51,209 nt of DNA from the sequence record OR896831.1, one strand, 5' to 3'. Positions 34,039-37,084 of the stretch are shown here, piece by piece. This DNA is from Escherichia phage BubbaBully. A program made the translations under genes and the position numbers. Each line of letters begins with the position of its first letter. Positions within the stretch are counted from its first letter, which is position 1. The notes under the pieces are model-generated. The model had not been told where the DNA came from. It did not search any database and was given only the letters and a program-made list of their open reading frames with translations.

Positions 34039-35157
34039 ATGATTCAGAAAATGACAGACCAGCAGTTTAAAGAAGCACGAGCAGAGGGCAAAACCTACAA
34101 GCAGATCGCGGAGGAGTTCGGCTTGAATGTTCGCACCGTTGAGCGCCGCGCGGCACGACTTGCCCGCCAAGGTGAAACTAACACGAAAGGCGCACCAGGT
34201 TTTGCGGTTGTTCGTGAGTCAGTCCTGACCCGCGCAAACGGCGAAGAAGTGATGCGCTGGACTATCACCAACAAAGATAAAGAGCAGTTGGAAGCGCTCA
34301 TGCAAGCCGCGATGGAGGCATTCGCTGAGGAAGTGCCACGCCTTGAGCCTCAGCCGGAAAGCCACAAAGACTACAGCGAAAGCCTTGCGCTATATCCGAT
34401 CTTTGATATGCACATTGGTGCAATGGCTCATAAGCACGAGTGCGGCGAGAATTGGGACACGGCAACCGCCGAGAAGGTCATGAATGACTTCTTTGATTAT
34501 GCTGTAGAGTGTGCGCCAAACAGCGAAAAGGCTGTGCTCCTGATTGGTGGCGATATGCTTCACAGTGACGGCCTTGAGGCTGTAACACCTGCTAGCGGTC
34601 ACGTTCTTGATCAGGATAGCCGCTATGCCAAACTGGTTTATGTCGCAATCCGAGCTACTCGTCGCGCTATCTCCTTGATGTTGACCAAACACAAAGAGAT
34701 TGAGGTTCAGGTTATCGAGGGCAATCATGACCAGTCAGGGATGATCTGGCTACGCGCAGCAATGGCGGCGGCATACGAGAACGAGCCACGCGTGACGGTT
34801 GATGTTTCTCCTCGCGTAGTGCATCACACGCAGTACGGAAAAACCTTCCTTGCTTATCACCACGGGCACACTGTGCGCAAGCCGGAGGCGTTGTTGATGA
34901 TGTGCGCGTCGGATTGGCGAGAGGACTTCGGGATCTCAAAATCAATGTATGCTCACGTTGGACATTGGCATCACCAGACCGTAACAGAAACCAGCCTGGG
35001 GATTGTTGAAGTTCACAGCACAATGGCGGCTAAAGATGCATATGCAGCTCGCGGAGGTTGGCGCTCTCGTCGTCGCGCGGCGGTTATCATCTACGACAAA
35101 GAGCACGGCGAGATCGGGCGCTTCATGTTCTACCCTGAAATGATGGAGTCAAAATAA
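34039..35157 (+). CDS. metallophosphoesterase (calcineurin-like) with N-terminal HTH-like region
   Basis: 372 aa; motifs DMH, GGDMLHSD, GNHD, HHGH; N-terminal KTYKQIAEEFGLNVRTVERR resembles an HTH. Confidence 0.65.
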   Translation: MIQKMTDQQFKEARAEGKTYKQIAEEFGLNVRTVERRAARLARQGETNTKGAPGFAVVRESVLTRANGEEVMRWTITNKDKEQLEALMQAAMEAFAEEVPRLEPQPESHKDYSESLALYPIFDMHIGAMAHKHECGENWDTATAEKVMNDFFDYAVECAPNSEKAVLLIGGDMLHSDGLEAVTPASGHVLDQDSRYAKLVYVAIRATRRAISLMLTKHKEIEVQVIEGNHDQSGMIWLRAAMAAAYENEPRVTVDVSPRVVHHTQYGKTFLAYHHGHTVRKPEALLMMCASDWREDFGISKSMYAHVGHWHHQTVTETSLGIVEVHSTMAAKDAYAARGGWRSRRRAAVIIYDKEHGEIGRFMFYPEMMESK

Positions 35158-35327
35158 TGAAAGTGAAATGCGTTGAGAATTCATCTAAAACACTGCCTTA
35201 CTACGAGGGCTTTGTGTACGAGGCTGAGCCATTGCCTGGCGGGATGTACAAGATTAAAGATGAATCAGGGCAGCATATCATTGCGCCGCTAAAAGGACAT
35301 TATCTGGAGTTTTTACAGATTGATTAA
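35157..35327 (+). CDS. small hypothetical protein (56 aa), not in ORF track
   Basis: ATG overlaps upstream stop (TAATG); open frame to TAA at 35325-35327; terminator follows. Confidence 0.4.
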   Translation: MKVKCVENSSKTLPYYEGFVYEAEPLPGGMYKIKDESGQHIIAPLKGHYLEFLQID

Positions 35328-35351
35328 CATTTAATTTCATAAGCTTACAAA

Positions 35352-35378
35352 GGGTTAGCATTTGCTAACCCTTTTTTT
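35352..35378 (+). terminator. intrinsic terminator upstream of lysis cassette
   Basis: GGGTTAGC/GCTAACCC stem followed by T7. Confidence 0.6.
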
Positions 35379-35454
35379 ATTGTTTTGTTTTTGCTCATTG
35401 ATGGTTAACATAAACTCGCTTAACTATTGACATTTGACACAAGGAGATCGGATT

Positions 35455-35670
35455 ATGAGAGAATTTTTAAACGCAGCAACTACAGGAACCGGAGGCGCAT
35501 CATTGACGGGAGCGGCGACGGGGCAAATGACAATCGCGGTTGCTGGTCTTATCCTAATGGCGGCTTTTGGTTTTTGGGGCGCTTATCTGCGCTGGAAGGA
35601 TAGCAAGGCGCTGCGAGAGGCTTTGGATCGTGAAGATATCAAAGAGGCAATTAGAATCAGGGGGAAATAA
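35455..35670 (+). CDS. holin (pinholin-like)
   Basis: 71 aa from ATG 35455 (AAGGAG RBS); two hydrophobic segments and charged C-terminus; immediately upstream of SAR endolysin. Confidence 0.6.
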
Positions 35671-35672
35671 TC

Positions 35673-36167
35673 ATGAGTTTACAGAGGAGCGCGGCATACG
35701 CTTTATTTGGCGCAGCGCTCTCGTTGACTCCTCCGCTCCTGGAGGAGATCGAGGGCATTCGCTACAAGCCATATAAAGATATCGCTGGAGTCTGGACGGT
35801 CTGCGCGGGTATTACCGGATCTGATGTTGTGCTGGGTAAGACGTACACGCAGAGAGAATGTGATGCACTTCTTGCCAAGCATATCGGGATTGCAAAGGCA
35901 GAAGTCGATAAGAGAGTGAAGGTTGAGATCCCGGACACAATGAGGGCGGCGATGTATAGCTTCACTTACAACGCTGGCACTGGAGCGTTTCGCAAGTCAA
36001 CCATGCTCAAGAAGATCAACAATGGTGATCTTTATGGAGCGTGCGACGAGCTTTGGAAATGGACGTATTATTACAATCCAAAAACGGGCAAGCGCGAGAA
36101 GTCCAAAGGACTAAAAAACCGTCGCGCGGTTGAGTACAAATATTGCACTAAGGATCTGAAAAAATGA
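35673..36167 (+). CDS. SAR endolysin (GH24 lysozyme)
   Basis: T4-lysozyme-like catalytic pattern EGxRxKxYxD...T; N-terminal weakly hydrophobic signal-anchor-release-like segment. Confidence 0.75.
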
Positions 36168-36559
36168 AACGATTAGCTTTGGCGGTACTGGTTGCCGCCT
36201 CTCTTTCTGGTTGTTCAGCGTCAAGCGCTCTGAGTGATCTTATCGGCAGCAAGCCGGAAATCACAGCACAGGCCGGATCCGAAAACGTAAAGCAGACAGT
36301 AGGCGTTACGGCTAAAAATGACGAGAGCAGCAAGCAGGAAAACACGATCAAGGATTCGCAGGTTGGAAAGGTTGACTCCTCCAACAAAAAGAAAGTGAGC
36401 ACATCAAGCATCCAGGCTGAGACAATCACAGCCGACAAGATCGAGATCAGAAACAGCGATAGTGATTTGTATGTGATGTTCTTTGCGCTGGCTTGCTTTT
36501 TTGTTGCTGGCTTTGCGGCTGGCGTTGTTTGGAATTGCAGAAAAAATAAAGGGGCATAA
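36164..36559 (+). CDS. unimolecular spanin
   Basis: 131 aa with N-terminal lipobox (LSGCS) and C-terminal transmembrane helix; last gene of lysis cassette. Confidence 0.65.
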
Positions 36560-36570
36560 TGCCCCTTTTT
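36551..36570. terminator. bidirectional terminator hairpin containing the spanin stop codon
   Basis: GGGGCA-taa-TGCCCC flanked by A-run and T-run. Confidence 0.6.
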
Positions 36571-36762
36571 CTATTCTAGGAGTCGGACGTTAATCAATAC
36601 TACGCCGTCCTCGTCGTGCAGATTGTGCTCCTTTGCTGGATTGGCTCTCATGTCGCTATACAGGATCAGGAGTAGCGCCGCAATCATTTCGTCATGCGAT
36701 ACCGAATTTACGGCGCAATGCTTCATAATCGCATCTATTAGATTTTGTGTTGAATAATTCAT
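36571..36762 (-). CDS. hypothetical protein (doubtful)
   Basis: 63-aa ORF overlapping the 3' end of the upstream ORF in another frame. Confidence 0.3.
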   Translation of the reverse strand: MNYSTQNLIDAIMKHCAVNSVSHDEMIAALLLILYSDMRANPAKEHNLHDEDGVVLINVRLLE

Positions 36763-37084
36763 CGTCGCTTAACTCGTCAAGATGAAACAGATCGTAAATG
36801 TATTTGTTGCTTTCACCTTCAAGGCTATACAACTCAAACCCAAACGGCCTCTTGCGCGAGCCTTTGCACGTCACCACGCCTTTATCTATCCCAAGATATC
36901 CCAATGTAGCCATTCGCGGTATAAACTCAAGAGAAACGCTTGAGGCGAATTTACGAGGCGTCATATTGGCGGCTCTCGCGAGCCGCTCACATTCTTTGTG
37001 CTTAAAAACAAATCTCGCTAAGTGCTGGCGATTAAACCAATCGTAACTTTCGCAAAACTTATACAGATCCAGCAGAAACATCAT
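36692..37084 (-). CDS. hypothetical protein
   Basis: 130-aa ORF immediately downstream of the P-loop NTPase gene. Confidence 0.45.
   Translation of the reverse strand: MMFLLDLYKFCESYDWFNRQHLARFVFKHKECERLARAANMTPRKFASSVSLEFIPRMATLGYLGIDKGVVTCKGSRKRPFGFELYSLEGESNKYIYDLFHLDELSDDELFNTKSNRCDYEALRRKFGIA

Follow-up and report, generated by a model that had tools for sequence, protein, structure and literature searches.

A T1-type lysis cassette in Escherichia phage BubbaBully encoding a holin, an R21-like endolysin and a predicted unimolecular spanin

The closest described relatives of the lysis locus considered here are those of phage T1 and other Drexlerviridae. In T1 (NC_005833, 42878-43982) gene 13 encodes the holin, gene 12 the endolysin and gene 11 the unimolecular spanin (u-spanin). 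The LSGC lipobox of T1 gp11 has been shown experimentally to be used, and the gp11 family, which has a periplasmic domain predicted to be beta-rich, is found in cassettes with a pinholin and a SAR endolysin (PMC6139136). Such cassettes have been described as 'pinholin and SAR-endolysin' together with a u-spanin (PMC6139136; PMC11447400; PMC13164509). T1 gp12 has been predicted to be a SAR endolysin and the T1 and TLS holins have been proposed to be class II pinholins (PMC11447400), while a class II SAR endolysin from the Drexlerviridae has been described as causing azide-sensitive, that is, SecA-dependent, lysis (preprint, bioRxiv 10.64898/2026.09.09.750462). We found no experimental work on T1-type holins or on the T1 endolysin in the literature, and the labels 'pinholin' and 'SAR endolysin' that are routinely repeated for the Drexlerviridae rest on inference. 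Lysis in this family is also routinely filed under the phage 21 paradigm.

We analysed a 51,209-nucleotide stretch of Escherichia phage BubbaBully (OR896831.1), referred to below as the window. Three lysis genes lie on its plus strand, tightly packed between two intrinsic terminators. The holin gene (35455-35670) runs from an ATG at 35455 to a TAA ending at 35670, encodes 71 residues and is preceded by the ribosome-binding site AAGGAGA (35441-35447, plus strand). The endolysin gene (35673-36167; ATG at 35673, TGA ending at 36167) encodes 164 residues and has the ribosome-binding site GGGGGA (35660-35665, plus strand), and the spanin gene (36164-36559; ATG at 36164, TAA ending at 36559) encodes 131 residues. 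A gap of 2 nt separates the holin stop from the endolysin start and the endolysin TGA overlaps the spanin ATG (ATGA), a spacing from which we read the three genes as probably translationally coupled. The coordinates assigned to the three genes by an earlier sequence-only reading are right, the reading frames being confirmed and the family matches lying far beyond chance.

The gene order is that of T1, and the product lengths are closely similar (71, 162 and 133 residues in T1 against 71, 164 and 131 here). The holin, endolysin and spanin are 58%, 66% and 47% identical to the products of T1 genes 13, 12 and 11, respectively. As in BubbaBully, the T1 terminator overlaps the spanin stop codon (it is annotated so in the T1 record) and a convergent, helicase-side operon lies downstream. 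We consider it about 90% probable that the cassette is the late lysis module of a T1-like siphophage (Drexlerviridae, Henuseptimavirus-like), gene-for-gene homologous to T1 13-12-11. The earlier proposal of a module made up of a holin, a SAR endolysin and a unimolecular spanin is supported by synteny and homology with T1, by the annotations of the nearest relatives and of the BubbaBully record itself, and by the literature on T1 gp11-family cassettes. The two phages differ in their genus-level backbone, Tempevirinae/Henuseptimavirus-like for BubbaBully and Tunavirus for T1. The membrane helix of the BubbaBully spanin is longer than that of T1 and unrelated to it in sequence, the N-terminal segment of the endolysin is less hydrophobic (mean Kyte-Doolittle (KD) hydropathy 1.44 against 1.68 in T1), and the exonuclease and DUF7244 genes upstream, which in T1 are separated by an HNH gene, have none between them in BubbaBully.

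Much closer relatives are found in Henuseptimavirus phages IsaakIselin, JohannLBurckhardt, Henu7, Samwise and vB_EclS_AS5 and in Enterobacter phage N5822, which share 91.5-93.9% nucleotide identity over the whole cassette. These relatives are also about 90% identical across about 80% of the surrounding 25 kb, and the same genes are annotated there as holin, endolysin and u-spanin. Few amino-acid changes separate the IsaakIselin proteins from those of BubbaBully (97% identity for the holin, 98% for the endolysin and 95% for the spanin), and the precise spanin sequence is on record for BubbaBully alone. More widely, 7 other Drexlerviridae loci, as well as metagenomic contigs, show the same succession of holin, endolysin, spanin, convergent small ORF and helicase. 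The cassette is therefore already known: it is annotated in the BubbaBully record (holin, endolysin, Rz-like spanin) and in hundreds of relatives, and it is described in the literature. Our analysis confirms this annotation and indicates that the gene labelled 'Rz-like spanin' is a unimolecular spanin.

The terminators that frame the cassette are both well defined. The upstream one (35349-35374, plus strand) has an 11-bp stem, a 4-nt loop and a T7 tail, and its predicted folding is strong (MFE -16.4 kcal/mol, z = -4.98), in line with the sequence-only reading, which placed the cassette downstream of a terminator. It closes the upstream unit, composed of an exonuclease-like gene and the DUF7244 gene, and parts that unit from the lysis cassette. 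A hairpin with a T-run stands at this position in all 8 aligned Drexlerviridae loci, with differing stem sequences. The downstream terminator (36548-36568) is active in prediction on both strands, with a 9-bp stem, a 3-nt loop and T-runs on each side (z = -3.15 on the plus strand and -3.22 on the minus strand). Its loop is the spanin TAA stop codon itself (36557-36559), as had been claimed from the sequence, and its 5' arm is formed by the final spanin codons (K-G-A). Since a convergent ORF terminates at 36571, this terminator is common to the spanin side and to the convergent minus-strand genes. T1, PMBT35, Webervirus, Tlsvirus and Warwickvirus phages likewise have a stop codon within the loop of the hairpin, again with differing stem sequences. 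This conservation was read from folds of each sequence in place of an ungapped covariation count, which comes out too low because the loop lengths differ and throw the sequences out of register. Terminator-like sites are frequent in the region (11, against 2.6 +/- 1.5 in shuffled sequences). No known RNA families or tRNAs were found in a search of the whole window, and no direct repeats of at least 100 bp, terminal or internal, were found.

The endolysin matches PF00959 (E = 5.8e-38), and residues 3-158 align with residues 5-160 of full-length R21 of phage 21 (PDB 3hde_A, E = 3.3e-45). R21 is a true homologue, the identity of 47-49% (49% for R21) including the N-terminal segment. The GH24 catalytic triad recognised by the sequence-only reading is formed by E27 (35751-35753), D36 (35778-35780) and T42 (35796-35798), and the pattern E27-x8-D36-x5-T42 is invariant in 58 endolysin homologues. 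R5 is followed by an uncharged, signal-anchor-like segment, S6-L23 (nt 35688-35741), of 18 residues, 9 of which are Gly, Ala, Ser or Thr and none Cys. The earlier description of the N-terminus as signal-anchor-like therefore holds, and the R21 homology spans the segment. An uncharged hydrophobic segment precedes the catalytic Glu (at position 24-28) in 120 of 120 homologues; basic residues lie ahead of it in the subset of these whose sequences were printed, and Cys occurs within it in 5 of the 120. An AlphaFold2 model of the endolysin (pLDDT 88.5) has 4zpu and 3hde as its best Foldseek matches (TM 0.79-0.83), with truncated R21 reaching only 0.60. R21 and DLP12 RrrD (4ZPU) share with the BubbaBully enzyme the E-x8-D-x5-T triad, a Cys-free anchor and a matching predicted fold. 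From its sequence we assign the endolysin to GH24, of the R21 (class II SAR) type, and homology to R21 suggests that it shows SAR behaviour, that is, uncleaved export followed by release. Relative to R21, the anchor and linker taken together have 8 residues fewer, and the hydrophobicity of the anchor is far lower: over its best 17 residues the KD mean reaches 1.44, compared with 2.29 in R21, 2.24 in P1 Lyz and a median of 1.84 in the family, which ranks it 7th-8th lowest of the 120 homologues. The segment also contains Pro-Pro, and with so weak an anchor stable membrane tethering of the enzyme is not assured.

The spanin matches phrog_1804 (E = 4e-48, residues 1-129) and is alignable with T1 gp11 over its full length, with 57 invariant columns. 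Its lipobox, L14-S15-G16-C17 (nt 36203-36214), is identical to the LSGC of gp11 and is followed by Ser18 at position +2. A C-terminal transmembrane helix (residues 102-124, nt 36467-36535; 17-residue KD up to 2.42) is followed by the basic sequence RKNKGA. Both the lipobox and the C-terminal helix had been noted from the sequence. The periplasmic domain has no Cys, the cysteines of the protein being C17 in the lipobox and C111 within the helix. All the sequence features that we checked for a unimolecular spanin of the T1 gp11 type are present, and the protein is predicted to be one; the corresponding gene product is named 'Rz-like spanin' in the BubbaBully record and 'u-spanin' in that of IsaakIselin. 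The T1-type assignment made by the sequence-only reading is upheld by the similarity to gp11, while its description of such spanins as rare is true only in a relative sense, homologues being present in 1092 of 50,697 phage records, Drulisvirus podophages among them. A local Pfam search gave no match for the spanin, and in NCBIfam the holin, endolysin and spanin all fall below the cut-offs. An embedded or overlapping o-spanin (Rz1-like) frame in the spanin or endolysin gene was considered and rejected: the sole internal plus-strand ORFs in these genes (36483-36593, 36022-36114 and 36041-36133) all lack a lipobox Cys. Lambda Rz/Rz1 is by analogy alike in role, acting in the last step, outer-membrane disruption, and has the same end topology of an outer-membrane lipid anchor and an inner-membrane helix. 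It is, however, composed of two polypeptides, whereas the BubbaBully spanin would be one, free of periplasmic Cys and of any embedded or overlapping o-spanin frame. The spanin of phage 21 is likewise a two-component Rz/Rz1, in contrast to the unimolecular form here.

The holin is a member of the T1 gp13 family (Pfam Phage_T1_holin, PHROG 2877). It matches phrog_2877 over residues 1-71 of 71 (E = 6.5e-35), and an identical protein, named 'holin [Escherichia phage BubbaBully]' in the BubbaBully record, carries the precomputed assignment PF27028 Phage_T1_holin; our local Pfam search, made with a copy that did not hold this newer family, gave no match. As for Phage_T1_holin, the gene stands directly upstream of an R21-type endolysin gene. 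At its N-terminus the protein has a conserved segment rich in Gly, Ala and Thr (residues 4-24, nt 35464-35526); one strong transmembrane helix follows (residues 25-45, nt 35527-35589), and then a basic C-terminal tail that we assign to the cytoplasm. From the type of its partner endolysin the holin would act as a pinholin, as is also argued in the literature; both 'pinholin' and 'two helices' are predictions for this protein. Homology to the phage 21 pinholin S21 68 is undetectable by BLASTP (E = 3.0) and by hhalign, and BubbaBully, unlike phage 21, has no dual-start antiholin. A dual-start holin/antiholin motif of the kind claimed for TLS was rejected, as the sole other Met, M25, is I or L in relatives.

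Of the sequence-only description of a two-helix holin, the holin part stands, but only one helix (residues 25-45) is clear. It is quite possible, if short of probable, that T1-type holins are single-pass proteins (N out, C in) whose Gly/Ala/Thr-rich N-terminal segment at no stage forms a membrane helix; the holin would then fall outside the S21-type class II pinholins with two helices, and it could still mainly depolarise the membrane. Residues 25-45 alone pass hydropathy thresholds, and T22-G23-Q24 is all the polar loop that could link the two putative helices. The AlphaFold2 model (pLDDT 71) shows one long, continuous helix over residues 18-58 with no hairpin, preceded by a low-confidence helix (2-10) and a coil (11-17; pLDDT < 50), although a monomer model is weak evidence for an oligomeric membrane protein. 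Sequence conservation is higher in the N-terminal segment than in the membrane helix, with F4, N6, G13, G14, G23 and Q24 invariant across 34 homologues; a plain membrane helix would not usually show this. The T1 GenBank note reads 'contains single transmembrane domain', and hhalign of 8 T1-type holins against S21 68 returned a probability of 0.3% and no similarity. Against a single-pass topology, the holin has a weak match to phrog_20 (E = 0.0016), a group that includes S21 68, a re-annotation of TLS predicts two segments (PMC11447400), and the N-terminal segment has the small-xxx-small motifs typical of packed membrane helices. Hydropathy itself is divided. The segment, with a KD mean of about 0.5, is unlike S21 68 TMD1 on the Wimley-White octanol scale (+4.7, unfavourable, against -2.9), whereas it is about as weak as this proven TMD1 on the Kyte-Doolittle and Hessa-type scales (TMD1 0.49 against 0.52 for the holin segment, and +6.2 against +6.95), which leaves room for a transient first holin helix. 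That T1-type holins form a distinct single-pass class, with the N-terminal segment acting in the periplasm or at the membrane interface, is a more tentative and rather doubtful extension, in which the conserved segment could be, for example, a timing or oligomerisation element. Were the holins single-pass, and combined with the unusually weak endolysin anchor, lysis control in the Drexlerviridae would be mechanistically unlike the phage 21 paradigm.

Other assignments of parts within the cassette fare less well. The endolysin N-terminus might be an ordinary cleavable Sec signal peptide, giving a soluble periplasmic enzyme restrained by the energised membrane and not by tethering. Its short, weak hydrophobic core (KD 1.44) would suit this, as would the small-x-small sequence A15-L16-S17 within the segment (A-L-A in the relatives' consensus), and SignalP reportedly calls a signal peptide in a related Drexlerviridae endolysin (bioRxiv 10.64898/2026.09.09.750462). 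The motif, however, sits midway along the uncharged stretch, about 9 residues past the basic residue, a poor placement for signal peptidase. A similar A-x-A motif is also found by alignment within the R21 SAR domain, and that domain escapes cleavage. In addition, A15 and L22 show conservation above 90%, which would be unexpected in a discarded peptide, and residues 14-27 are predicted to be built into the folded enzyme as a helix, in the manner of full-length R21; a cleaved signal is, in our view, decidedly unlikely. The same predicted helix can be turned to an opposite use, namely that lysis is canonical, with a large-hole holin freeing a soluble cytoplasmic endolysin of which the weakly hydrophobic N-terminal segment is merely the first helix. 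We regard this as highly improbable: the closest solved relative, R21, is an experimentally established SAR endolysin, and the uncharged hydrophobic segment is universal among the 120 homologues, with KD values up to 2.57. To our knowledge, canonical GH24 enzymes (T4 E, P22 gp19) have no such segment. The azide sensitivity of lysis by the related Drexlerviridae enzyme (bioRxiv 10.64898/2026.09.09.750462) points the same way. The SH3-clan DUF7244 gene just upstream of the cassette (35157-35327; DUF7244 match, E = 3.1e-28) might in turn encode a fourth lysis component that binds the wall as an auxiliary to the endolysin, a role that has been proposed in T1 and KanT1. The strong family match and the position of the gene, adjoining the cassette in BubbaBully and relatives, favour this, as does its presence in 188 of 522 Drexlerviridae, invariably near lysis genes; the gene is nevertheless missing from about two thirds of the family (PMC13164509). 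Here it is separated from the holin gene by the strong terminator at 35349-35374, a point that bears on the 2026 proposal of lysis-module membership. Its ATG overlaps the stop of the exonuclease-like gene by one base (TGATG, 35155-35159), so that it reads as the end of the replication/repair unit. From its sequence the DUF7244 protein has no signal sequence or hydrophobic segment; were the holin to make small holes only, the protein would have no way to the wall ahead of lysis. A role for it in lysis thus appears unlikely.

Taking the cassette as a T1-type module with a SAR-type endolysin, lysis may be envisaged as follows. The holin, endolysin and spanin genes would be expressed as their own unit between the two terminators. 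By analogy with R21, the endolysin would be exported by the host Sec machinery through its uncharged N-terminal segment and held, tethered and inactive, at the inner membrane, with the catalytic Glu27 just 3 residues past the anchor. The holin would build up in the inner membrane and collapse the membrane potential at a set time, a triggering step suggested by its family membership and the type of its partner endolysin. Depolarisation would free the endolysin N-terminus, which would then join the lysozyme body as a helix (residues 14-27), and the refolded enzyme would cut the peptidoglycan, as the R21 paradigm and the AlphaFold2 model suggest. The small holin and exported, tethered lysozyme would thus follow the same logic as in phage 21. 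The spanin, lipid-modified at Cys17, would be sorted to the outer membrane (Ser at +2) while keeping its C-terminal helix in the inner membrane; with the wall removed, it would disrupt the outer membrane, probably through fusion with the inner membrane. This function is expected from homology to T1 gp11, which complements lambda RzRz1 (PMC6139136).

How transcription of the cassette begins can be addressed more tentatively. A consensus promoter scan upstream of the cassette gave a single match, TTGACA at 35427 with an 18-nt spacer and GATTAT ending at 35456. We rejected it as the cassette promoter: it overlaps the holin start codon, so that transcription would begin within the gene, and the TTGACA is missing from T1. 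A candidate -10 hexamer, TAACAT, lies at 35406-35411 on the plus strand; it was not reported by the consensus scan, and no good -35 was found for it. Transcription from it would be expected to begin shortly after 35411, within a few bases. An alignment of 8 phages over the stretch preceding the holin gene has invariant columns for the T, A, A and T of TAnnAT (35406, 35407, 35410 and 35411).

The three tightly packed plus-strand genes at 35349-36568 form the T1 lysis cassette, which is already known, in a known and deposited phage: BubbaBully is Citizen Phage Library CPL00172 (listed in PMC10893117), and its proteins are on record, with exactly these sequences, as a holin, an endolysin (WWD12637.1) and an Rz-like spanin (WWD12638.1). 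The 71-aa holin is encoded from ATG 35455 to TAA 35670, with AAGGAGA upstream at 35441-35447, the 164-aa endolysin from ATG 35673 to TGA 36167, with GGGGGA at 35660-35665, and the 131-aa spanin from ATG 36164 to TAA 36559, its start overlapping the endolysin stop (ATGA). The genes are bracketed by an upstream hairpin at 35349-35374 (AAAGGGTTAGC-ATTT-GCTAACCCTTT followed by T7; MFE -16.4 kcal/mol, z = -5.0) and a downstream hairpin at 36548-36568 (AAAGGGGCA-TAA-TGCCCCTTT), which has T-runs on both strands (z ~ -3.2 each way) and is followed by the end of a convergent ORF at 36571. The exact loop of the downstream hairpin is the spanin stop codon. A sequence-only reading had the coordinates and the anatomy of the cassette right, and its interpretation also agrees with current knowledge. 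Spanins of the T1gp11 family occur in cassettes with a pinholin and a SAR endolysin in the Young-lab survey (PMC6139136), and a 'classical architecture' of the same kind is given for Drexlerviridae in a 2026 paper (PMC13164509). The weakest words of that reading are 'two-helix', 'pinholin' and 'rare'.

The cassette DNA is 91.5-93.9% identical to that of Enterobacter phage N5822 and of the Henuseptimavirus phages IsaakIselin, JohannLBurckhardt, Henu7, vB_EclS_AS5 and Samwise, and in IsaakIselin the three genes are annotated as holin, endolysin and u-spanin. The surrounding 25 kb (the 26001-51000 half) shares ~90% identity over ~80% with the Henuseptimavirus phages and N5822, which puts the phage close to the boundary of the genus and far below the level of a shared species. 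In T1 itself, genes 13, 12 and 11 have the same order and sizes, their products being 58% (holin), 66% (endolysin) and 47% (spanin) identical to those of the window, and the T1 record annotates a terminator over the end of gene 11. Synteny extends to Webervirus, Tlsvirus and Warwickvirus phages, Salmonella phage PMBT35 and metagenomic contigs. The whole window contains no tRNAs, Rfam matches or direct repeats of at least 100 bp.

A spanin stop inside the terminator loop recurs in every Drexlerviridae genus examined (T1 locus L002, 43966-43996, and loci L005-L008), with covarying stems: GGGGCA/TGCCCC in the window, GGAGGC/GCCTCC in T1, GGAGCC/GGCTCC in PMBT35 and GGCGGC/GCCGCC in Tlsvirus phage U136B. 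Since the 5' arm of the hairpin also codes for the final spanin residues, K-(G/E/A)-A, the end of the protein and the terminator hairpin are under mutual constraint.

In its sequence the spanin shows each feature examined of a T1 gp11-type unimolecular spanin, as had been claimed. It matches phrog_1804 (E = 4e-48), and its N-terminal signal ends in the lipobox LSGC, the same as in T1, with Ser at +2. A periplasmic stretch of roughly 80-85 residues lacking Cys follows, then, at residues 102-124, a strongly hydrophobic C-terminal helix (KD hydropathy mean up to 2.4) and RKNKGA. An ORF scan found no embedded Rz1-like frame at the spanin locus. T1 gp11, whose LSGC lipobox has been the target of experimental manipulation, complements lambda RzRz1 (PMC6139136); for the window's protein, function is assigned by homology. 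The description of such spanins as rare needs qualifying, with homologues present in 1092 of 50,697 phage records, among them Drulisvirus podophages, whose genes run spanin, holin, endolysin.

The endolysin is a GH24 lysozyme (PF00959, E = 5.8e-38) with the sequence pattern of an R21-type (class II) SAR endolysin. The solved structures nearest to it are those of full-length phage 21 R21 (3hde_A, E = 3.3e-45, with the alignment starting at residue 3) and DLP12 RrrD. E27, D36 and T42, which do not vary among 58 homologues, align with R21 E35, D44 and T50, and R5 is followed by 18 uncharged residues lacking Cys, then Glu24, Glu25, Ile26 and the catalytic Glu27, in agreement with the catalytic pattern and the signal-anchor-like N-terminus first noticed. 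This N-terminal plan is common to all 120 database homologues examined, with the catalytic Glu at position 24-28 and a best 17-residue KD mean of 1.18 to 2.57 (median 1.84); only 5 of the 120 have Cys in the segment. In R21 the anchor, once released, refolds into the enzyme. An AlphaFold2 model of the window's endolysin (58 sequences, pLDDT 88.5), in which residues 14-27 are helical and run into Glu27, fits this mechanism, its TM-score being 0.79-0.83 over 158-161 columns against full-length R21 and RrrD and 0.60 against truncated R21. The anchor is weak, with a KD of 1.44 (7th-8th lowest of the 120; R21 2.29, P1 Lyz 2.24), and contains Pro-Pro. Given this weakness, we infer no more than that the endolysin may be exported uncleaved and then released. 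Lysis by a Braunvirinae endolysin is azide-sensitive (bioRxiv 10.64898/2026.09.09.750462), the only related wet-lab evidence found.

The holin is a T1-type holin. Along its whole length it matches phrog_2877 (E = 6.5e-35), and Pfam PF27028 'Phage_T1_holin' is assigned to an identical protein, so that its place in the family is solid; our Pfam search gave no holin match because the version used predates PF27028. The two helices and the pinholin label of the earlier reading are predictions. By hydropathy, residues 25-45 form the single strong helix, and the tail is basic (9 K/R vs 6 D/E). The N-terminal segment (residues 4-24, KD mean ~0.5) scores the same as helix 1 of S21 68, the phage 21 pinholin, on KD and Hessa-type scales; on the Wimley-White octanol scale it is unfavorable, at +4.7 vs -2.9 for S21 68. 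The S21 68 sequence used for comparison agreed with the phage 21 record at 100% identity, and its first helix is experimentally established. The AlphaFold2 model (34 sequences, pLDDT 71) has a low-confidence helix at 2-10 and coil at 11-17, then an unbroken helix from 18 to 58; it contains no hairpin. Neither BLASTP nor hhalign detected similarity to S21 68, and the sole link is a weak match (E = 0.0016) to phrog_20, which also holds S21 68. The T1 GenBank record gives the holin a 'single transmembrane domain', and a re-annotation of TLS gives two segments, with the wording 'proposed class II pinholins' (PMC11447400). Conservation is higher in the N-terminal segment than in the membrane helix, with F4, N6, G13, G14, G23 and Q24 unchanged across 34 homologues, so the segment is functionally important. 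The T1-type holin probably acts as a depolarizer for a Sec-exported endolysin. In PMBT35 (L005 1057-1362) the holin CDS as deposited is 101 aa long, from an upstream TTG, and the conserved 71-aa holin starts at an internal GTG (locus 1147); the longer CDS is probably a start-codon mis-annotation.

A hairpin with a T-run lies just upstream of the holin gene in all eight aligned Drexlerviridae loci. After it comes TAnnAT, whose T, A, A and T are invariant across the eight phages, from several genera (alignment A4): TAACAT in the window (35406-35411), TAAAAT in T1, and TATCAT in tonijn and a Webervirus phage. This may be the -10 element of the lysis genes; no convincing -35 was found for it. A consensus promoter scan returned a single match upstream of the cassette, a 10/12 sigma-70-like site at 35427-35456 (+), with TTGACA at 35427 within a tandem TTGACATTTGACA, an 18-nt spacer and GATTAT. 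The -10 lies over the holin ATG, so its transcript would lack the holin start codon, and the TTGACA is kept in Henuseptimavirus and Tlsvirus loci and missing from T1. The site may have arisen by chance or may serve as an internal promoter.

Just upstream of the cassette, 35157-35327 (+) encodes a 56-aa DUF7244 (SH3-clan) protein (E = 3.1e-28), put forward as an auxiliary lysis-module component in a 2026 paper (PMC13164509). Its ATG shares one base with the stop of the preceding exonuclease-like gene (TGATG), the protein has no signal sequence, and the strong terminator at 35349-35374 separates its gene from the holin gene, which together argue that it is part of the upstream unit. The preceding gene (34039-35157, +) encodes a 372-aa 'DNA repair exonuclease' (phrog_704, E = 5e-148). 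Its first ~55 residues give weak matches of the helix-turn-helix / sigma-70 region 4 type (phrog_3855, phrog_323), and metagenomic copies have a Pfam Sigma70_r4_2 match graded 'weak', which suggests a DNA-binding N-terminal extension.

On the other side, a 63-aa minus-strand ORF at 36571-36762 (phrog_9539, E = 2.5e-22, matching from residue 4) shares 71 nt, read in a different frame, with the 3' end of a 130-aa phrog_2794 gene (36692-37084, -). The ORF is left unannotated in IsaakIselin and starts at an internal Met in Samwise (35-nt overlap); in PMBT35 and U136B the same long overlap of 71-77 nt is annotated.
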